Notes under the pieces: model-generated
What the model was told of the DNA's origin: nothing
What the model saw: only the letters and a program-made list of their open reading frames with translations
Databases searched by the model: none
Program-made: the position numbers and the translations under genes
Assembly (NCBI GenBank): GCA_965214225.1
Contig: OZ243942.1
Location: 3,106,035 to 3,170,034, forward strand
Direction: 5' to 3'
Origin: Polyangiales bacterium
GTDB lineage: Bacteria; Myxococcota_A; Polyangia; Polyangiales; CBDCBC01
Length of the DNA: 64,000 bases
Part shown: piece by piece, positions 4,123 through 16,915 of the stretch
Numbering within the stretch: the stretch's first letter is position 1
How the letters are laid out: every line of letters begins with the position of its first letter

Positions 4123-4314
4123 ACCTCTTGTGGAAGCTGGGTGGCCCGCTCAACTGGGTGGCCTGGCTACCAAAACTTCGACTTTCGGGATATTTAGCTC
4201 CTGCCGAGATTCCTCTGCTGCGCATGGCTTGGCAAATAAGCGGCCGACGCCTTCAGCTCCTTGGTCAAGTCGCCGATGATAGACGTGGGAGGCGCGATTC
4301 CTTCTGAACACGCT

Positions 4315-5610
4315 ATGGGCAAAGCACTTACATCGGCTAGAGCCATTGCTGTTGGAGGCGGCAAGGGCGGTGTGGGTAAAAGTATCATCGCCTCAAACTT
4401 GGCGATAGCGCTGGCGAAGCGCAACAAGCGCACGGTGCTCGTTGATGTTGACCTTGGCGCGCCAAACCTACACACCCTCCTTGGCATCGGAAACCCCGGT
4501 AAGACGCTTCAATCCTTCTTCGACAAAGAGGTCAAGCGCCTGGATGAAGTAGCGATTGAGACGCACGTCCCCGGCTTGCGCCTGATCGCCGGCGTGGGAG
4601 CCGTCCCCGGTGCAGCCAACATCATGCACAGCCGTAAGCTGAAGCTGCTGCGCCACATCCGGATGTTGAACGCGGACGCGGTTGTGATCGATTGCGGCGC
4701 TGGGGTCACCTACAACACGCTCGACTTCTTCCTGGCGGCTGATCATCGCCTGCTCGTCGCCACTCCCCAGCTCACTTCTCTGCAAAACACGTATTGCTTC
4801 CTCAAGGCTGCTGTTTATCGCAGCATCAAAACGCTTGCGGAAGACCGCGCAGAGGCTGACCTTTTCACAGAGGCATCTGACAAGTCGGAAACAGAGCACC
4901 TCAAAACACTGATCGAGCGTGTCAAGCCCGAGCGCCCCGCCTTCGCCGAGGCCATCGCCACAAGCCTCGCGTATTTTGGCTGCTCGCTCATCGGCAATCA
5001 AGCTCAGGACACACGGCAGCACAACGTGTTTCACGCCGTGACACGGATGATGCGCGAGTTTCTCGATGTAGAGGTGAATGTGCTCGAGGTGCTCTCACTG
5101 AGTCGGAAGGTGCACGATTCGGTCAACCTGCGTGAGCCACTTCTTTCTCTGGCGCCCGAGCATAAGGATGCCGCTGCACTCAATCGCATCGCTCGAGCTC
5201 TACTAGACGTGGATGTGGACGAGTTGCGAGATGCGCGCCAGCGCGCCTCCGAGAAGGAGGAGAGCGAAGAGGACGCGGCATCGAAGGAGGAGCGCCTACC
5301 GGAATCGCTGACGCCGTTCCTCCGAGGCGAGGAGCGCCACTCCGTCAACTGGAAAGCGCGCCTAAAGCACGAGGGAGCGGACTTCGAAGTCACAGTCACC
5401 GACATGTCGGCCAAGGGTGCTGGCCTCGAAGGTGCTAGTGCCCTGCCGCAGGATGCAAAGGTCACGCTGATCATCGCGCAGGACGGACAAGAGCAGGAGC
5501 TTCGTGGCGCCGTATGCTACGTCAAGGAGTCGGAGGGGCGGCTGGGCATTCAGTTTGCGGATGAAGAAAGCGAAGCGCACGCGCAGCAACTCCTCCAGAA
5601 GGGGACATGA
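4315..5610 (+). CDS. ParA/MinD-family P-loop ATPase fused to a C-terminal PilZ domain
   Basis: Deviant Walker A GGGKGGVGKS near the N-terminus. The C-terminal ~100 aa carry PilZ signatures (RGEERH ... DMSAKGAGL). The ORF is open from TTG 4261, and ATGs at 4276 and 4315 are alternative starts. Confidence 0.8.
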   Translation: MGKALTSARAIAVGGGKGGVGKSIIASNLAIALAKRNKRTVLVDVDLGAPNLHTLLGIGNPGKTLQSFFDKEVKRLDEVAIETHVPGLRLIAGVGAVPGAANIMHSRKLKLLRHIRMLNADAVVIDCGAGVTYNTLDFFLAADHRLLVATPQLTSLQNTYCFLKAAVYRSIKTLAEDRAEADLFTEASDKSETEHLKTLIERVKPERPAFAEAIATSLAYFGCSLIGNQAQDTRQHNVFHAVTRMMREFLDVEVNVLEVLSLSRKVHDSVNLREPLLSLAPEHKDAAALNRIARALLDVDVDELRDARQRASEKEESEEDAASKEERLPESLTPFLRGEERHSVNWKARLKHEGADFEVTVTDMSAKGAGLEGASALPQDAKVTLIIAQDGQEQELRGAVCYVKESEGRLGIQFADEESEAHAQQLLQKGT

Positions 5611-5663: not shown

Positions 5664-6362
5664 TTAGGTGACTACCGTGCCGTTGGGCCGCCTTTCACAC
5701 CGCTCGCGATCGACCAGGCGGGGGTCATGTGGAGGGCTGCTGCCGCAGCTAGCCCGATCTCTTAGCCAGCTGCGGTAACGCTCGGCTCGGCGTGAAGCAT
5801 CGGGTGCCAGCGAGGTGTACCAGCTGTGTGGCGTCCAGGTTTGACGGAAACGGTCGAGACTGTGGAGAGGTTCAGGTGCAGCAAGATGCATCCACGCAGT
5901 GCTCCACGGGTAGTGCTCAGGGTCTTCAACAAGGCCCGCCCGCACAGGATTCAGGTCCACGTAGGCGAGCACCGCAGCGAGCTGCGCTTCGCTGGTTGCG
6001 GGTTTGCACCCGAAGCGCTCCTCGAAGAGCTTGCCCGAGTTTCCCCGCCTCTTGTTCCTTCTCTGGGCGTAGCGCTGACACGTCAGCTTCAAACATAAGG
6101 ACAAGCTTGGCGCGTCGGCTGCCGTCAGCACCAGATGCGCATGGTTGGCTAGGAGAGCGAACCCGTGGAGCGACGCACGTGTGCGGTGCATGGCGTCACT
6201 GAGCAAGTCTAGGAAGGATGCGTAGTCATAGGCGTAAGAGAATAGCCGACGTCGGTTGTTCCCACGCAGCCAGACGTGATGAGGGGCGTTGCCAACGACT
6301 TGGTATGCGCGAGGTTTGCGGGCCACGATAAGAGGTCGTGCAATGCATGAAATCGTTGCCAA
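5664..6362 (-). CDS. Y1 (HUH) tyrosine transposase, REP-associated (RAYT)/IS200-like family
   Basis: HUH motif in LLANHAHLVLTA, RGNNRRRLF near the N-terminus, and a catalytic-Tyr region AYVDLNPVRAGLVEDPEHYPWS. Single gene with no TnpB partner. The track start is TTG. Confidence 0.8.
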   Translation of the reverse strand: MATISCIARPLIVARKPRAYQVVGNAPHHVWLRGNNRRRLFSYAYDYASFLDLLSDAMHRTRASLHGFALLANHAHLVLTAADAPSLSLCLKLTCQRYAQRRNKRRGNSGKLFEERFGCKPATSEAQLAAVLAYVDLNPVRAGLVEDPEHYPWSTAWMHLAAPEPLHSLDRFRQTWTPHSWYTSLAPDASRRAERYRSWLRDRASCGSSPPHDPRLVDRERCERRPNGTVVT

Positions 6363-9067: not shown

Positions 9068-9153
9068 AAGGGGACGCGTGTCAACCTTTTCAACCGTCGG
9101 AGTCGTGGCTGACTATCACTGTGACGGTTGACAAGGTTGACACGCGTCCCCTT
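9068..9153. repeat. long imperfect inverted repeat (31-bp arms, 1 mismatch, 24-nt loop)
   Basis: AAGGGGACGCGTGTCAACCTTTTCAACCGTC ... GACGGTTGACAAGGTTGACACGCGTCCCCTT, read directly. It lies next to the transposase-gene relic. Confidence 0.8.
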
Positions 9154-10644: not shown

Positions 10645-11760
10645 GTGAGGCATTTGAGGCGTGCATGTTTGCTTTTAGCCGCTTTCGGGTTGGCCTGGAC
10701 CGCTCAGTCAGCGGACGCAGCCCGCATTGAAGAGCTGTGCGACGTCAAAGGCGTCCGCAGCAACCAGCTAATTGGCTACGGCCTTGTGGTTGGGCTCAAC
10801 AACACCGGCGACACCGGGCAAGCGCGCTTTACGGTGCAGAGCACAGCAGCCATGCTTCGGCGTCTCGGCGCAACCATCGACCCGCGCACCATTCGCACAC
10901 GCAACGCTGCGGCGGTGATGGTGACTGCCACGTTGCCGGGTGCTGTTCAGCCAGGCACGCGCATCGACGTCGTGGTCTCTTCATTGGGTAATGCGCGCAG
11001 CTTGCTTGGCGGCACGCTGCTGCAAACGCCGCTCTATGCGGCGGATCGACGCGTCTACGCGGTGGCGCAGGGTCCGCTGCTCATCGGCGGCTACTCTGCA
11101 TCCGGTCGTACCGGTTCGAGTGTCCAGCGTAACCATACGACAACAGCCCGTGTTCCACAGGGCGCCATTGTCGAGCGCGACGTTCCTACGGTTGCCCTTG
11201 CAAAGCAAAAGTCCATCGTGCTGACGCTGAGAGAACCATCCTTTGTGACGGCACAGCGTATTGCAGAAGCTATCAACACCTCGCTCGGAGATGGCGCTGC
11301 AGCGGCCGTGAGCGCTGGCTCCGTGAGGATGAATCCGCCGCAGAAGTTCCGTGGCGACCCCGTAGGACTTCTAGCGACGGTGCAGCTACTGGAGGTTGAG
11401 CCAGATACCCCCGTAAGGGTGGTCATCGATGAACGCACTGGCACAGTCGCGCTTGGCGCGGGTGTGCGGATTTCTGAAGTGGCCGTTGCGCACGGGGGCC
11501 TCACGGTCGAAATCAATGAATCAGTCGCTGTCTCTCAGCCGCAGGCGCAGTTCGGGCAGGGGTCGACCGCGGTGGTGCCGCAATCGGACGTCCGTGCCAC
11601 TTCGGAGCAAGGCAACGTAAGGCTTGTGAAGACCACTGCCGAGCTTTCCGATGTGGTGAATGCTCTCAATGCGCTCGGGGCACGTCCGCGGGACCTGGTC
11701 GGTATCTTTCAGGCGTTGCGCACAGCGGGTGCACTGCGCGCCGACATCGAGGTCCAATGA
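10645..11760 (+). CDS. flgI: flagellar P-ring protein FlgI
   Basis: GTG at 10645, 5 nt after an AGGAGG. Signal peptide followed by ARIEELCDVKGVRSNQLIGYGLVVGLNNTGD, which is a diagnostic FlgI N-terminus. C-terminus ...LNALGARPRDLVGIFQALRTAGALRADIEVQ. Confidence 0.92.
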   Translation: MRHLRRACLLLAAFGLAWTAQSADAARIEELCDVKGVRSNQLIGYGLVVGLNNTGDTGQARFTVQSTAAMLRRLGATIDPRTIRTRNAAAVMVTATLPGAVQPGTRIDVVVSSLGNARSLLGGTLLQTPLYAADRRVYAVAQGPLLIGGYSASGRTGSSVQRNHTTTARVPQGAIVERDVPTVALAKQKSIVLTLREPSFVTAQRIAEAINTSLGDGAAAAVSAGSVRMNPPQKFRGDPVGLLATVQLLEVEPDTPVRVVIDERTGTVALGAGVRISEVAVAHGGLTVEINESVAVSQPQAQFGQGSTAVVPQSDVRATSEQGNVRLVKTTAELSDVVNALNALGARPRDLVGIFQALRTAGALRADIEVQ

Positions 11761-11875
11761 TCACCACTGTCAGTGCACACCATGCTTGTGTCGCGTCTTC
11801 AGGCATTGCGCGCACAGGGAGCATGCTCGGCACGCCACGTGCGCCTCACTGCAGAAGGGAGCGAGGCAAGTACAT

Positions 11876-11927
11876 CTGCGCCACAGCCACCTGCGCCACA
11901 GCCACCTGCGCCACAGCCACCTGCGCC
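11876..11927. repeat. 15-bp tandem repeat x3.4 (CTGCGCCACAGCCAC)
   Basis: Read directly. It lies in the unusually long (316 bp) flgI-flgJ spacer. Confidence 0.8.
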
Positions 11928-12076
11928 CCAAGCGGGTTATCATTGGGCGTGGTCAGGCGTGGCAGGTCGTCCGGCCGAGTTTTCCGCTTAGGTCCTCTTC
12001 AAGAGTCCGTAGATGGACGTCACATACCTGCGCAGGCTGCGGAACGACCGGAGCTGCACGTGGAGGAGCAGGCCGG

Positions 12077-13210
12077 ATGACGTTACCTGTTGCACCTTTG
12101 CCAAGTGATGAGTCTCAGCGGGCCGAGCGGGCGGGTGCGCAGTCGCAACGTCAGGCGCAGAAGGCCGCGAAGGAGTTTGAAACCCTGTTTGTGCAGCAGA
12201 TGATGAAAGTCATGCGCACGTCAATGACAAGAGGGATGAGCGAATCGGCGATGGGGGGATCACAGTACATGCAGATGTTTGACGCAGCGCTCGCCAACTC
12301 GATCACCGAAACCGGGGCCCTCGATTTGCAGCGCATCTTTACCGCCGGCTTTGATGACGAAGACGCTCCGGTCAAGACCGTGCATGCCATGGCCCCTCTG
12401 CGCGCAGGGGCCATGTATGGCGTGATCGCCCCTTCCTCAAGCGGGCCTCCTCTGCGCGGAGCCACAGGCGCGATGCAGCGGGCTGCGGCCCAACTTATCG
12501 GTGTGGGAGGGGCGGAGCGATGGGGTCGAGAGGGTCGCCTTTTGCCCCAGGACCTCGCCAGCAACTACGCCGCTCGGTTGCAGGACGGTAAGGCTAAGTT
12601 CAACGTCAACGACGCGAGTGGTTACCAGGGGTACTATAAGTGTAACTTGTTCGCCTTCGAGCTCGCCCGTCGAGCAGGCTTTCAAGTGCCAGTTGTAGGT
12701 CGCAAGCGTGGCTTTGGCTATCCGGTTTCCAGCGCTGTAGCCCAAGATGCTGCGAGCAACCGGCAGGTCAGAGGCAACTGGGGCCGAGTTGTGACCGGTG
12801 AAGGTGCGAGTTCATTAGACGCTGGACTTCTGCAAGGAAGTCGGGCGTTCATGCTTGCAGCAAGCGCCTCTGACCCAAAGCGTGCAGGCCACATGGCGGT
12901 GGTGGAGAGGGTGCGAGAGGTCAAACACGACAACCAAGGCAAGATCAAGCAAATCGTGTTCGATGGCTGGGAGGCGAGGTCGAAAGGTGCGCGGCACCTA
13001 CAGCAGCGCACATGGAATCGCAGCGATACCCATGGCGGACACGACGTTCGGGGGGGCTTTGGGAACATCGAAGTCATTGAGTTAAAGCCGGCACAACGCG
13101 GCAAAGTGCAGGAGGTCGCGCTCTCCAAACCCGGCTTGCCATCCAAACATGACATTTTTGCCTCAAGTTCTCCGCTCCATCGTCCGATTGCTAGAAGGGA
13201 GGGAACATGA
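12077..13210 (+). CDS. flgJ: FlgJ-like protein: rod-binding domain fused to a putative Cys/His (papain-fold, NlpC/P60- or CHAP-like) domain
   Basis: ATG 12077 is preceded by GGAGGAG. The N-terminal AAKEFETLFVQQMMKVMRTSM is the FlgJ rod-binding signature. The C-terminal half has a candidate Cys (GYYKCNLFAFELARRAG) and His (RAGHMAVVERV) pair. The 5' extension of the track ORF (11660-12076) overlaps flgI and a repeat, and is not credited. Confidence 0.75.
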   Translation: MTLPVAPLPSDESQRAERAGAQSQRQAQKAAKEFETLFVQQMMKVMRTSMTRGMSESAMGGSQYMQMFDAALANSITETGALDLQRIFTAGFDDEDAPVKTVHAMAPLRAGAMYGVIAPSSSGPPLRGATGAMQRAAAQLIGVGGAERWGREGRLLPQDLASNYAARLQDGKAKFNVNDASGYQGYYKCNLFAFELARRAGFQVPVVGRKRGFGYPVSSAVAQDAASNRQVRGNWGRVVTGEGASSLDAGLLQGSRAFMLAASASDPKRAGHMAVVERVREVKHDNQGKIKQIVFDGWEARSKGARHLQQRTWNRSDTHGGHDVRGGFGNIEVIELKPAQRGKVQEVALSKPGLPSKHDIFASSSPLHRPIARREGT

Positions 13211-13470
13211 AGATCGACGGGAGCTCAAGGTCTCCATATATTCGCCAGCAATCTCTGGCGGGGCAGGCTTCAAAGGCCAGACCAGACGCCACAAGGGGCG
13301 AGAGCGTGCGGCTGTCCGGCGAGGCGGACCTTCTGCAAAACGCTCGTCAGCCTGAGCGTACGGATCGGCAAAGGGTGGAGAAGCTTCGACTCTCCCTTAG
13401 CGAAGGCACCTTCGAGGTCGATCCGTACAAGATTGCTGACGCGATGTTGCGTGAAGAGCGGCTGGCATAG
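13207..13470 (+). CDS. flgM: anti-sigma-28 factor FlgM
   Basis: 87 aa. C-terminal VEKLRLSLSEGTFEVDPYKIADAML is typical of FlgM. ATGA overlap with flgJ. Position before flgN-flgK-flgL. Confidence 0.8.
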   Translation: MKIDGSSRSPYIRQQSLAGQASKARPDATRGESVRLSGEADLLQNARQPERTDRQRVEKLRLSLSEGTFEVDPYKIADAMLREERLA

Positions 13471-13626
13471 TGTTGCGTGAAGAGCGGCTGGCATGGTGTT
13501 GCGTGAAGAGCGGCTGGCATAATGTTGCGTGAAGAGCGGCTGGCATGGTGTTGCGTGAAGAGCGGCTGGCATGGTGTTGCGTGAAGAGCGGCTGGCATGG
13601 TGTTGCGTGAAGAGCGGCTGGCACAG
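13445..13626. repeat. 26-bp tandem repeat x7 (TGTTGCGTGAAGAGCGGCTGGCAnnG) beginning inside flgM
   Basis: Unit starts at 13445, 13471, 13497, 13523, 13549, 13575 and 13601. Unit 1 encodes the last 8 codons plus the TAG stop of flgM. Units differ only in the last 2-3 nt (TAG/TGG/TAA/TGG/TGG/TGG/CAG). Confidence 0.95.
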
Positions 13627-13674: not shown

Positions 13675-13986
13675 ATGAACACTCAACTTGAGAAAGATCT
13701 CTACTGCTTGCTGGAACAGGAGCGCGAAGCGGCAAGAAGCGCCGATGTCGGTCAGCTTCTTAGCCTCCAGGACCAGAAAAGCACGCTGATGGCGCAGTTG
13801 CTAGATGGCGAGGGTGAACCTCAGCTGGATCCAGCCACAACGCAGCTGGCTACATCAAACGTCAAGCTCATCCGCCACCTGTGCAGTTGCCTACGGGGTC
13901 TGACTGCCGGCGGTGACCCCGATGTGTACTCTGCCTCTGGAGAGGCTCGCTCCATGCGTCCCTCGTACGTCAAGGGCGCACTGTGA
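13675..13986 (+). CDS. flgN: FlgN-like flagellar export chaperone
   Basis: ATG 13675 is preceded by GGAGGAG. About 103 aa, helical, Q/L-rich (LLEQEREAARSADVGQLLSLQDQKSTLMAQL). Sits between flgM and flgK. The longer track start (13597) lies inside the repeat array. Confidence 0.6.
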   Translation: MNTQLEKDLYCLLEQEREAARSADVGQLLSLQDQKSTLMAQLLDGEGEPQLDPATTQLATSNVKLIRHLCSCLRGLTAGGDPDVYSASGEARSMRPSYVKGAL

Positions 13987-15374
13987 CAGCGCTGTTTGGC
14001 CTTCTTCGTACGGGCGCGAGTGGAATGAAAGCCCACTCTTACTCGCTCAACCTGTCAGCCAATAACGTCGCAAACGCTTCGACACCGGGATATGTTCGGC
14101 GAAGTACCGTGCTGCAGGAGCAATGGCCACCGCCGCCCATTAGCGGCGGCGTGCAGGTGACTGGAACACGTCGCCACGTGGACCCCTACCTTGAGAAGCG
14201 GATGCTTTCAGCTGAATCGATGAAGGGCCGTGCGGAAGCAGGTGTGGGAGGTTTGGGCATACTCGACAACGTTTTTGCCGAGGGTCCGGGCCAACTGGGT
14301 GAAGCCATTGCGCACTTTGAGACAGCACTCTCCAGCCTGGCCTCGCAGCCAAACGACGGCGGGGTGCGCTCCGATGTGCTGGGAAGGGCTGAGCAGCTGG
14401 CCCAGGCCTTCCGCAACACGGCTGATTCGGTCGCTCAAGCTCGGGATGACCTGAACCAACGCGTGGTTGAAACTGTAGGCGATGTCAATCTGCGGCTAGA
14501 GCAGATCGGCGATCTCAATATTCGCATTGCGAACATAGAGGGCACCGGAGGCGACGCAAGCTCGATGCGCGACCAGCGAGAGCAACTGGTGCGGGAAGTC
14601 GCCGAACGCGTGCCGGTCAGTGCGCTCGAAAATCAGCGAGGCGGCATCAACCTTGTGCTCACGGGCGGAGGGACGCTGGTCACCGCAGAAGGTTCGGTGG
14701 CGGTCCTGGGGTTGGATAACGACGCATCAGGCGACACAACGGTCACCTTCACTGAGGCTGGCGGTAAGGTAGAAGTGACCGACCGGCTAACCAGCGGAAG
14801 CATTGGAGGCTATCTGGCGGCACGTGACGGTGCGTTGGCAGACGCCCGCGATGGCTTAGACAGTCTCGCGCACGATATTGCCACGGCGTACAACGATGTG
14901 CACAGCGCAGGCTTTGACCTAGACGGCAACACGGGAAGTAACCTGTTCGCTCCTTCAGCGACAGCTGCGGGTGCCGCAATCACCATGCGTGTATCCGACG
15001 ACGTCAAAGGCAACCCCGATGCGGTTGCTGCAGCCACAGATGCAGCTCAGGTTCCTGGCGACAACCGCAACGCGCTTGCCCTTCAAGCGCTGAGCTCAGC
15101 GAGCATTGCTGGAGGCGGAAGTGCAACCGCCTCAGGGGCCATGGCGTCGATGACCGGATCAGCGGGGCGCTCAATCTCTTCGTTTAAAGACGATGGTAAT
15201 TACGCAGACGCCGTGCATCAGCAGCTGACGGAGATGCGGGAGGCAGTCTCCGGTGTATCTATGGACGAGGAGATGACCAAGATTACCTTCTATCAACGCG
15301 CCTATGAAGCATCAATACAGGTTTTAAAGACCGCTGATCAAATGCTGGCCGAACTAATCAACATGAGGAGATAG
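13983..15374 (+). CDS. flgK: flagellar hook-associated protein 1 FlgK
   Basis: N-terminus LFGLLRTGASGMKAHSYSLNLSANNVANASTPGYVRR. C-terminus EEMTKITFYQRAYEASIQVLKTADQMLAELINM. GTG start overlaps the flgN stop. Confidence 0.92.
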   Translation: MTALFGLLRTGASGMKAHSYSLNLSANNVANASTPGYVRRSTVLQEQWPPPPISGGVQVTGTRRHVDPYLEKRMLSAESMKGRAEAGVGGLGILDNVFAEGPGQLGEAIAHFETALSSLASQPNDGGVRSDVLGRAEQLAQAFRNTADSVAQARDDLNQRVVETVGDVNLRLEQIGDLNIRIANIEGTGGDASSMRDQREQLVREVAERVPVSALENQRGGINLVLTGGGTLVTAEGSVAVLGLDNDASGDTTVTFTEAGGKVEVTDRLTSGSIGGYLAARDGALADARDGLDSLAHDIATAYNDVHSAGFDLDGNTGSNLFAPSATAAGAAITMRVSDDVKGNPDAVAAATDAAQVPGDNRNALALQALSSASIAGGGSATASGAMASMTGSAGRSISSFKDDGNYADAVHQQLTEMREAVSGVSMDEEMTKITFYQRAYEASIQVLKTADQMLAELINMRR

Positions 15375-15376
15375 AG

Positions 15377-16252
15377 ATGCGAGTGACTGAGGGTATGCTG
15401 TCCAACCTTGCGCGTGAGCGCATCACCCGAGCTCGCTCTACTGTTTATGAGGCGCAGCAGGTGGCCGGCACTGGGATTCGCGCCGGCAAGCCTTCGGATG
15501 ACCCTACAGCAGTGGCAATCGGTGCACGCGCGTCTCATCAGAAGTCCCTTGCCGTCTCACGCATGCGAACTGCCGAAGCAGGCCTCGGAAGCTTGCAGTT
15601 TCAGGACGGCACCCTCGCGGACGTGGGAACATTGCTCTCTAGGGCCAAGGAGCTTGCGCTGCAAGGGTCCGGAGGCGCCGCTTCAGATTCTGACCGCGCC
15701 GTGCTTGTTGAAGAACTCAATGCCGTGCGTGAACAGGTCCGCTCGCTCGCGAATGCTCGATTTGACGGGGAATACATCTTCTCTGGGTATGCCACTGGGA
15801 CGCAGCCATTCGCCGCCGACGGCACCTACCAGGGCGGCACAGACACAGTTGAGCTGGAGGTGGCGGCAGGTGTGAGAGTGGCCAAGGGAGTGACTGGCGA
15901 AGCTGCTCTTACCCTCGGGGGAGGTGACAATATCTTCACTGCCCTTGACGCTCTTCATACCGCCTTGAGCAACAACGACCCGACAGCCGCACAGGACACA
16001 GTTGGTCAAATGGACGATGCCATTCGTCAAGTGGCCAAGTCGCGTGCCACGGTGGGAGGCCACATGCAGAGCTTCCAGACGGCGTTTGCAGCGGCCGAGC
16101 GGGTGTACGACTACGCTTTTGAACAGCGTTCGCAGCTCATCGAAGCCGATCCATTTGAAGCGTACACCGACCTCAGCCAGGCTCTTCAAGCTCTCCAGGC
16201 GGCGTCACAACTTGCGCAGTTGTTGCCGCGTGAGGGGCTCCTAGGAGGATAA
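15377..16252 (+). CDS. flgL: flagellar hook-associated protein 3 FlgL
   Basis: MRVTEGML..., PSDDPTAV, and a flagellin-like C-terminal helix (DPFEAYTDLSQALQALQAASQLAQ). 291 aa. Confidence 0.88.
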   Translation: MRVTEGMLSNLARERITRARSTVYEAQQVAGTGIRAGKPSDDPTAVAIGARASHQKSLAVSRMRTAEAGLGSLQFQDGTLADVGTLLSRAKELALQGSGGAASDSDRAVLVEELNAVREQVRSLANARFDGEYIFSGYATGTQPFAADGTYQGGTDTVELEVAAGVRVAKGVTGEAALTLGGGDNIFTALDALHTALSNNDPTAAQDTVGQMDDAIRQVAKSRATVGGHMQSFQTAFAAAERVYDYAFEQRSQLIEADPFEAYTDLSQALQALQAASQLAQLLPREGLLGG

Positions 16253-16258
16253 TAGCTT

Positions 16259-16915
16259 ATGCTGACACTAAGCCGCCGTGTAGGAGAGCGCGTACTCATC
16301 GGCTCTACCATTGAAATTGAGGTTGTAAGTGTGACGGGAGGTCGGGTGCGTCTCGGCATTCGCGCCCCTAGGGCCTACCCGATTCAACGGGGCGAGCTCA
16401 TGGAGAAGATCGAGGTCGAGACAAAGCGAGCGGCGATCGAGCGAGCTTCTGATCCTAGTGAAACTGGACCTGAAATCGTGTTTTGTGAGGGTATTCTTGG
16501 CCTGAGCGGGCACGACACGTTCAAGCTCTACGACATTTCTGCGCGAAGCCCGTTCCGCATGCTGGAAGCCACTTCGGCAGCGGGTATCTGTCTTCTGGTC
16601 GTGCCCGTACGCGAGGTGTACGAGGCATACCCAGAGGAAGAAGCTCGTTCACTTGCCGACTTGGATCAAGGCGAAGAGGCGGTAGTATTTGCCATCGCCA
16701 GTGCACCAGCTAACGGAGAGCCATTGACCGTCAACCTCTCTGCGCCGCTCGTAGTGAGTCTAGAGAGTTTTCGCGGAAAGCAGGTCGTGCTGGACAGAGA
16801 GGAGCTGCAGCTGCGGCATCCTCTTGCACTCACGGCGCGTCCTTCAGTGCCACCTCCGCCCTCTCCAACAGCGGCCCCCGACCTTCGTCTCTGCGAAGAC
16901 GCAGCGTGCTCATAG
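16259..16915 (+). CDS. csrA: CsrA-FliW fusion protein (single uninterrupted ORF)
   Basis: Residues 1-55 (MLTLSRRVGERVLIGSTIEIEVVSVTGGRVRLGIRAPRAYPIQRGELMEKI) form a full CsrA fold signature. Residues ~60-205 (EIVFCEGILGLSGHDTFKL...SPFRMLEA...LLVVPV...AVVFAI....EPLTVNLSAPLVVSLESFRGKQVVLDREELQLRHPL) match FliW. No stop or frame change lies between them. Confidence 0.8.
   Translation: MLTLSRRVGERVLIGSTIEIEVVSVTGGRVRLGIRAPRAYPIQRGELMEKIEVETKRAAIERASDPSETGPEIVFCEGILGLSGHDTFKLYDISARSPFRMLEATSAAGICLLVVPVREVYEAYPEEEARSLADLDQGEEAVVFAIASAPANGEPLTVNLSAPLVVSLESFRGKQVVLDREELQLRHPLALTARPSVPPPPSPTAAPDLRLCEDAACS

Follow-up and report, generated by a model that had tools for sequence, protein, structure and literature searches.

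Control of CsrA by the protein antagonist FliW is the ancestral, protein-based form of CsrA control, as in the Hag-FliW-CsrA switch of Bacillus subtilis, found also in Campylobacter jejuni, Clostridioides difficile and Helicobacter pylori. CsrA subunits intertwine to form a dimer that offers FliW two symmetric binding sites (PMC7829508). To the interface, helix α1 of CsrA contributes V/I51 and N55, and FliW contributes P26, F58, N108, A111 and Q124, with Q124 hydrogen-bonded to N55, and substitutions of N55 in the B. subtilis and C. jejuni CsrA proteins abolish FliW binding (10.1101/2020.07.02.184341; PMC7829508). C. jejuni CsrA does not need its last 15 residues for binding (PMC7829508), and how FliW switches CsrA off allosterically is still debated (10.1101/2020.07.02.184341). 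In B. subtilis fliW and csrA are translationally coupled, which keeps the stoichiometry at about 1:1:1, and small imbalances abolish motility (PMC6529632). Here we describe a gene that encodes CsrA and FliW as one polypeptide, located in a 64,000-nucleotide stretch of DNA from a Polyangiales bacterium (GCA_965214225.1, contig OZ243942.1, positions 3,106,035 to 3,170,034 of the forward strand), which is referred to below as the window. The gene occupies positions 16259-16915 of the window on the + strand and is a genuine covalent CsrA-FliW fusion that closes the flgM-N-K-L operon.

The open reading frame, as read from the sequence, runs uninterrupted over 218 codons from its ATG. A preliminary sequence-only reading of the window had claimed a frame without a stop or frame change and a complete CsrA in the first 55 or so residues, and both points held. 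The ATG lies 6 nt past the stop codon of flgL, and the Shine-Dalgarno sequence AGGAGG (16243..16248, + strand), found within the 3' end of flgL, precedes it by 10 nt. When the 218-aa product was compared with Pfam profiles, both domains were detected above cut-off: CsrA (PF02599) over residues 1-52, matching model positions 1-52 of 53 with 67.5 bits (cut-off 27), and FliW (PF02623) over residues 73-189, matching model positions 1-122 of 122 with 70.1 bits (cut-off 25). A sequence search of the PDB assigned the N-terminal half to CsrA chains (E 4e-9), including 5DMB_D, and the C-terminal half to the FliW chains 2AJ7 and 5DMB_A. As 5DMB_D and 5DMB_A are the CsrA and FliW chains of one solved FliW-CsrA complex, each half of the fusion matched one partner of that complex. 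The NCBIfam equivalog scores were 62.8 for csrA (TIGR00202, cut-off 70.1) and at best 58.7 for fliW (NF009793 and others, cut-off 130), the fliW matches beginning at profile position 11-19. With both halves below these cut-offs, the protein counts as divergent, and neither of them is an equivalog over its full length.

The CsrA module (residues 1-58; 16259..16432, + strand), delimited by PF02599, the PDB matches and Foldseek, comprises the β-strand core and helix α1 (H45-58). Residues 45-58 (GELMEKIEVETKRA) form a canonical CsrA helix α1, which aligns to the consensus GELVDRIEAENRRA and is helical in an AlphaFold2 model of the protein. The RNA-binding residues of CsrA, which we take to be L2, L4, R6, R7, R44 and E46 (E. 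coli numbering), are all present in this module. A linker (residues 59-72, IERASDPSETGPEI; 16433..16474, + strand) stands where unfused proteins have the distal tail of CsrA and the N-terminal strand of FliW. It is followed by the FliW module (residues 73-189; 16475..16825, + strand), delimited by PF02623, by alignment to 5DMB_A and 2AJ7 and by Foldseek, and including N159, A162, K174 and Q175. The sequence-only reading had FliW matched along its whole length, which was correct as far as the full Pfam model is concerned, but the alignments begin at about FliW residue 21 and the N-terminal strand MKIxTxRFGxLEI is absent from the fusion. The protein ends in a non-conserved Pro/Ala-rich tail (residues 190-218; 16826..16915, + strand, stop codon included), which in the alignment of the fused family differs in both length and sequence.

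The AlphaFold2 monomer model was built from a 32-sequence alignment and gave a mean predicted local distance difference test score (pLDDT) of 91.2 and a predicted template modelling score (pTM) of 0.80. The linker had a pLDDT of about 73, and only the Pro-rich tail (65-79) was weak. Using Foldseek, the CsrA part was matched to CsrA/RsmA protomers (chains of 5Z38, 2BTI and 1VPZ) with target-normalised TM-scores of 0.80-0.88 and root-mean-square deviations of 1.2-1.5 Å, and the FliW part was matched (E 1e-8 to 5e-7) to 5DMB_A, 5JAK and 5DMD with target-normalised TM-scores of 0.73-0.74 and to 2AJ7 with 0.67-0.68. CsrA β1 and β5 were not strands in the monomer model, as would be expected, since in real CsrA, an obligate intertwined dimer, both pair with the other subunit. 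A pTM of 0.80 in spite of two domains and a 29-residue disordered tail indicates that the arrangement of the domains relative to each other is confidently predicted.

The fusion draws on the same two protein families as the Hag-FliW-CsrA systems and, like them, is tied to late flagellar genes (flgM, flgK, flgL, fliS, flagellin). Its family has the same contact residues as the B. subtilis pair, I/V51 and N55 on the CsrA side and, for N108, A111 and Q124 of FliW, N159, A162 and Q175 here, except that N55 of B. subtilis CsrA is T55 in the window protein. The Hag-FliW-CsrA systems consist of two separate polypeptides, whereas there is one chain here; in Bacillus fliW precedes csrA with translational coupling, whereas here CsrA precedes FliW; and the distal tail of CsrA and the N-terminal strand of FliW, present in those systems, are both deleted here. 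Free FliW of B. subtilis can be titrated independently and one per CsrA dimer is enough, whereas in the fusion it is tethered. The fusion would enforce a 2:2 stoichiometry like that of 5DMB, the FliW-CsrA heterotetramer of Geobacillus thermodenitrificans. CesT of enteropathogenic Escherichia coli (5Z38) also places CsrA under protein control, but its fold is unrelated to that of FliW, it has no flagellin input, and we know of no CesT that is fused to CsrA. The concept of a covalently attached regulatory domain is shared with ECF41/ECF42-type (extracytoplasmic function) sigma factors, in which the regulator carries its own inhibitory domain as a regulatory C-terminal extension; here too the folds are unrelated and there is no flagellin input.

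Searched on its own against word-indexed proteins, the sequence retrieved nothing but itself, and a scan of GTDB genomes with exact peptides gave no match. An exhaustive HMMER scan of 1.84 billion representatives, clustered at 50% identity, revealed approximately 40 proteins of 180-246 aa that aligned end to end at 29-47% identity, and 53 clusters (90% identity) in which both Pfam domains occur emerged from a profile search, some of them represented on 18 and 40 independent contigs. No patterns could be derived from the broad alignment because of its divergence, and a tighter sub-alignment was used to scan the GTDB species-representative genomes. Fused open reading frames were found in 20 of these genomes, all Myxococcota (Polyangia, Polyangiales, Polyangiaceae, Sandaracinaceae, and metagenome-assembled genomes labelled 'Deltaproteobacteria' or 'Myxococcota bacterium'), including one closed 9.07-Mb chromosome. 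The search for other single-chain CsrA-FliW proteins that the sequence-only reading had proposed was thus successful, giving 112 unique fused sequences, on which the residue counts below are based, and the 20 Myxococcota species genomes. In at least 16 of the 20 the fusion follows flgA-flgH-flgI-flgM-(flgN)-flgK-flgL in the same order as in the window, in several genomes fliS or flagellin genes lie within a few kb, and the FlgI proteins of these genomes are 61-70% identical to that of the window, so that a flagellated Myxococcota species is the most likely source of the window. The fusion is a conserved feature of a group of flagellated Myxococcota, old and retained. Where database sources name the fused proteins the name is 'carbon storage regulator (CsrA)' only, and the architecture is masked by this name even though the proteins are already public with both Pfam domains precomputed. 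The sequence-only reading knew of no account of such a fusion, and this was borne out in the searchable full-text literature, key subscription papers lying outside that scope: a natural CsrA-FliW fusion was not described there, the only fusions being engineered tags and reporters.

Cultured Myxococcota are known for gliding, not for swimming. Complete flagellar gene sets of the Gram-negative type (flgA, H, I, K, L, M and N together with fliS and fliC) were nevertheless observed in many metagenome-assembled genomes of Polyangia, Sandaracinaceae and other Myxococcota. Other covalent architectures were present among the proteins found with HMMER (P0026-P0150), where about 60 cluster representatives were tandem CsrA-CsrA proteins, three were single chains of four CsrA domains (P0041, P0066, P0142) and three were FliW-FliW single chains (P0028, P0043, P0084). 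CsrA 'dimers' joined covalently in this way would be pseudo-dimers whose RNA sites differ from each other.

The order of the two genes had been taken in the sequence-only reading to be inverted, and this was not the case. The operon of Geobacter sulfurreducens is flgJKLMN-csrA-fliW (PMC13407953), and the same GTDB scan uncovered 14 unfused csrA→fliW loci, on the same strand and abutting or overlapping, in other Myxococcota and in other lineages. The Bacillus-type order, fliW→csrA, was seen at seven loci, in Firmicutes and Acidobacteria only. An inverted order was rejected as a special trait of the window, csrA→fliW being native in Geobacter and the 14 loci and the usual 'delta-proteobacterial' order. 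The pairs of G. sulfurreducens and of eight Myxococcota loci (L033, L037, L047, L051, L057, L066, L070 and L071) have the same operon position and csrA→fliW order as the fusion, and their stops and starts abut or overlap, some of them in frame, but these genes encode two proteins. Unfused CsrA is 70-112 aa long, with a tail beyond helix α1, and unfused FliW has its own start and N-terminal strand (MKIxTxRFGxLEI…), beginning about 20 residues ahead of the FxxGIxGF motif. At five loci (L028, L031, L034, L037 and L066) csrA and fliW are in one frame with exactly one stop between them. At these, one point mutation or readthrough of the stop codon would produce a fusion. Programmed readthrough of such in-frame single-stop pairs was considered and rejected, as only 7 of the 14 unfused loci, which are not independent, are in frame, a number not clearly above chance.

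In the window protein, 19 residues lie between A58, with which the 'ENRRA' helix motif ends, and G78 of the FxxGIxGF motif, and the family has a mode of 19-21 and a median of 21. A distance of only 19-21 residues means that approximately 20-25 residues were lost at the junction, including FliW strand 1, and the loss of strand 1 explains why alignments to solved FliW structures begin at about residue 21. From these comparisons the unfused csrA→fliW pair is evidently the ancestral state, and the fusion would most simply have been derived from it by a deletion across the csrA stop and the fliW start. A crude neighbour-joining tree of the FliW module placed the window protein on a long basal branch inside one large, essentially all-fused Myxococcota clade, and at least five further fused groups were scattered among the free FliW proteins. 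The N-terminal strand of FliW persists in four fused proteins (P0038, P0049, P0052 and P0064), two of which have a vestigial Met. The gene for P0038 is located after flgK-flgL and that for P0052 after a ClpB-like gene, and P0070/P0151 adjoin an HDOD gene and a flgM-like gene. Since the fused groups are interspersed and differ in their junctions and contexts, it is likely that the fusion arose more than once.

Ratios of nonsynonymous to synonymous substitution (dN/dS) were obtained from nine pairs of related fused genes. They were 0.01-0.12 for the CsrA module, 0.01-0.27 for the FliW module and 0.12-0.67 for the linker, and about neutral for the C-terminal tail, and these values indicate strong purifying selection on both modules. 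The RNA-binding residues of CsrA are nearly invariant in the family (L2 in 109/112, R6 in 110/112, R44 and E46 each in 111/112). Position 51 is I, V or L, and N55 is found in 96/112 members. On the FliW side, the alignment with 5DMB_A equates N108, A111, K123 and Q124 with N159, A162, K174 and Q175 of the window protein; retention in the family is 108/112 for N159, 102/112 for A162, 112/112 for the adjoining P163 and 111/112 for Q175. The family therefore seems to keep the elements needed for contact with the antagonist and to drop the dispensable tail, with T55 of the window protein as the exception.

We regard it as probable that this protein is a natural single-chain CsrA-FliW pair, vertically inherited in a flagellated Myxococcota clade and acting as a tethered partner switch. 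The fusion would dimerise through its CsrA core, giving a 2:2 assembly that resembles the 5DMB heterotetramer. By default the tethered FliW would be docked on helix α1 of CsrA and RNA binding would be off. When unexported flagellin accumulates, its C-terminus would bind the FliW module and displace it from CsrA, and the freed CsrA core would bind GGA hairpins over the Shine-Dalgarno sequence of the flagellin mRNA, repressing translation; when export resumes, the tethered FliW would re-dock at once. Fusion would hard-wire a 1:1 stoichiometry and reduce the partner switch from three proteins to two components. Given a stoichiometry requirement of the B. subtilis type, a covalent fusion would be an extreme solution. 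Auto-inhibition of CsrA, one of two outcomes put forward in the sequence-only reading, is compatible with the conserved interface, the constrained linker length and the compact model; the other, a second product starting at M48, found no support, as described below. As for the RNA target, flagellin genes that adjoin the fusion in relatives carry AAGGA within the loops of short hairpins that cover the Shine-Dalgarno sequence, and the leader of one of them (L007) has a second GGA hairpin upstream. A broader proposal, a self-contained flagellin sensor in which CsrA is off through its own FliW domain and on when flagellin binds, reached several times independently, once in the Myxococcota clade and again in the other fused groups with their different junctions and contexts, and with T55 as a 'loosened' switch, has in our estimate slightly less than an even chance of being correct.

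Several observations weigh against the tethered partner switch. The window protein, which has I51, is the sole member of the 112 with T at position 55 (codon ACA, 16421..16423, + strand), and this may weaken the contact in cis. The FliW-side contact residues are conserved in free FliW as well, so that their conservation alone does not prove an intramolecular interaction, and we infer docking in cis on the N55 surface only from the pTM together with conservation. The missing N-terminal strand of FliW may affect the binding of flagellin. For a CsrA dimer of B. subtilis a single FliW is enough (PMC6529632; 10.1101/2020.07.02.184341), so an obligatory 2:2 assembly would be a different regime. In one metagenomic lineage (L091, 1700-2875) a free 80-aa csrA is located 230 nt upstream of a fusion with a long linker (P0035). 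Finally, the flagellin leaders of the relatives have the classical CsrA-site architecture, but GGA in a Shine-Dalgarno region is suggestive only, being weak and not specific as evidence.

It is also conceivable, if unlikely, that the switch operates in trans, with FliW docking on the partner protomer or on another dimer, in chains or oligomers, and not on its own chain. The CsrA dimer offers two symmetric FliW sites, either of which a linker of 14-20 residues could reach, and an AlphaFold2 monomer model cannot tell docking in cis from docking in trans. The high pTM of the monomer in an intrachain arrangement speaks for docking in cis, and none of these points is decisive.

There may, alternatively, be no inhibition in cis at all, the FliW module serving only to bind flagellin as a chaperone or recruitment domain, or CsrA serving only as a dimerisation scaffold. 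T55 at a key contact position of the window protein, the loss of FliW strand 1, the location of some distant fusions outside flagellar operons and the lineage with a separate csrA beside the fusion would all fit such an arrangement. We consider it improbable in view of the retention of N55 in 96/112 members with its partner Q175 in 111/112 and of I/V at position 51. R6, R44 and E46 are essentially invariant, and CsrA would consequently be no mere scaffold. The compact model with a pTM of 0.80 argues for a defined contact between the domains, and a constrained linker length is unexpected for a passive tether.

That the gene yields two products, the fusion plus free FliW (or CsrA), through internal initiation at M48 or another codon or through proteolysis of the linker, is very unlikely. 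Codon 48 (nt 16400) is an in-frame ATG that follows a G-rich stretch, and the linker, as the least constrained and least confidently modelled segment, leaves room for proteolysis. M48 is not the only internal Met, as the sequence-only reading had it, since M101 is also present. Initiation at M48 was rejected because it has no good Shine-Dalgarno sequence, because the codon falls midway along helix α1 of CsrA, and because the Met is not conserved: across the 112 members, position 48 is nearly always V, L, Y, F or I and Met in few. No conserved in-frame start with a Shine-Dalgarno sequence was found at a consistent place in codons 40-85 of 24 fused loci. The N-terminal strand expected of a free FliW is absent as well; the residues after M48 (MEKIEVETKRAAIE), which had been likened to that strand, are helix α1 of CsrA according to both the alignment and the AlphaFold2 model, and their identification as a FliW strand was rejected.

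An artefact, in which a lost stop codon or an indel merged adjacent csrA and fliW genes in this assembly, could in principle follow from one error, since the genes abut or overlap in unfused relatives and at five loci are in frame with a single stop between them, but it can be dismissed with near certainty, as every one of the closest relatives (35-47% identity) has the fusion and shares its junction architecture, the fusion recurs in the 20 species genomes and in dozens of independent metagenome assemblies, the absence of about 20-25 residues of CsrA tail and FliW strand 1 that unfused pairs possess amounts to more than mere readthrough, the junction has no vestigial stop, start or Shine-Dalgarno sequence, and the linker is under purifying selection.

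The two-protein CsrA-FliW module itself is known, and what is new is its natural, conserved single-chain form. This form can be viewed as an evolutionary experiment that fixes a ratio of 1:1 per protomer. Strand 1 of FliW and the distal tail of CsrA prove dispensable in it, whereas helix α1 with I51 and N55 and, in FliW, N159, A162 and Q175 are retained. The fusion is a handy one-protein construct for structural and biophysical work on the off-state and on release by flagellin. As the proteins are named only 'CsrA', surveys of FliW presence and absence would miss FliW in flagellated Myxococcota. Fusion of interacting partners ('Rosetta stone') is a familiar evolutionary pattern, and with a known fusion pattern and no new fold or chemistry the interest of the case is limited to that extent.

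Upstream of the fusion are flgA, flgH, flgI, a flgJ-like open reading frame, flgM, flgN, flgK and flgL, and downstream is a PAS histidine kinase gene. On the + strand, Pfam matches identified flgM (13207-13470), flgN (open reading frame to 13986, probably starting at the ATG at 13675, which has GGAGGAG upstream, and not at 13597), flgK (13983-15374) and flgL (15377-16252). No flagellin gene, second csrA or second fliW was found in the 64-kb window, which for flagellin agrees with the sequence-only reading. An Rfam scan gave nothing near the fusion gene, and scans for terminators and promoters gave counts equal to the shuffled expectation. The flgM-flgN spacer is filled by 6.9 copies of a 26-bp unit (13445-13623, 96% identical) that repeats the last 26 nt of flgM (…ATGTTGCGTGAAGAGCGGCTGGCATAG) and whose period is not a multiple of 3. 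This array was considered as a CsrA sponge and rejected, as it has no GGA motif. A 15-bp unit (CTGCGCCACAGCCAC) is repeated in tandem, perfectly and 3.5 times, at 11876-11927, in the 5' part of the flgJ-like open reading frame (11660-13210), and the flgJ-like homology begins only downstream of it. Upstream of flgA there is a near-perfect palindrome of 80 nt (9071-9150), where Rfam reported mir-3150 on both strands; with 54 bits, well short of the gathering score of 100, this match was discarded as a spurious palindrome artefact. A weak match to an IS200-like Y1 transposase was seen at 5664-6359 (- strand), with 22.4 bits, just below the cut-off of 23. A few kb before the flagellar cluster, a gene at 4261-5607 (+ strand) encodes a ParA/MinD-type P-loop ATPase with a C-terminal PilZ domain, which binds cyclic di-GMP (c-di-GMP), and its product is a possible placement factor of the FlhG/MinD kind that takes c-di-GMP as input.

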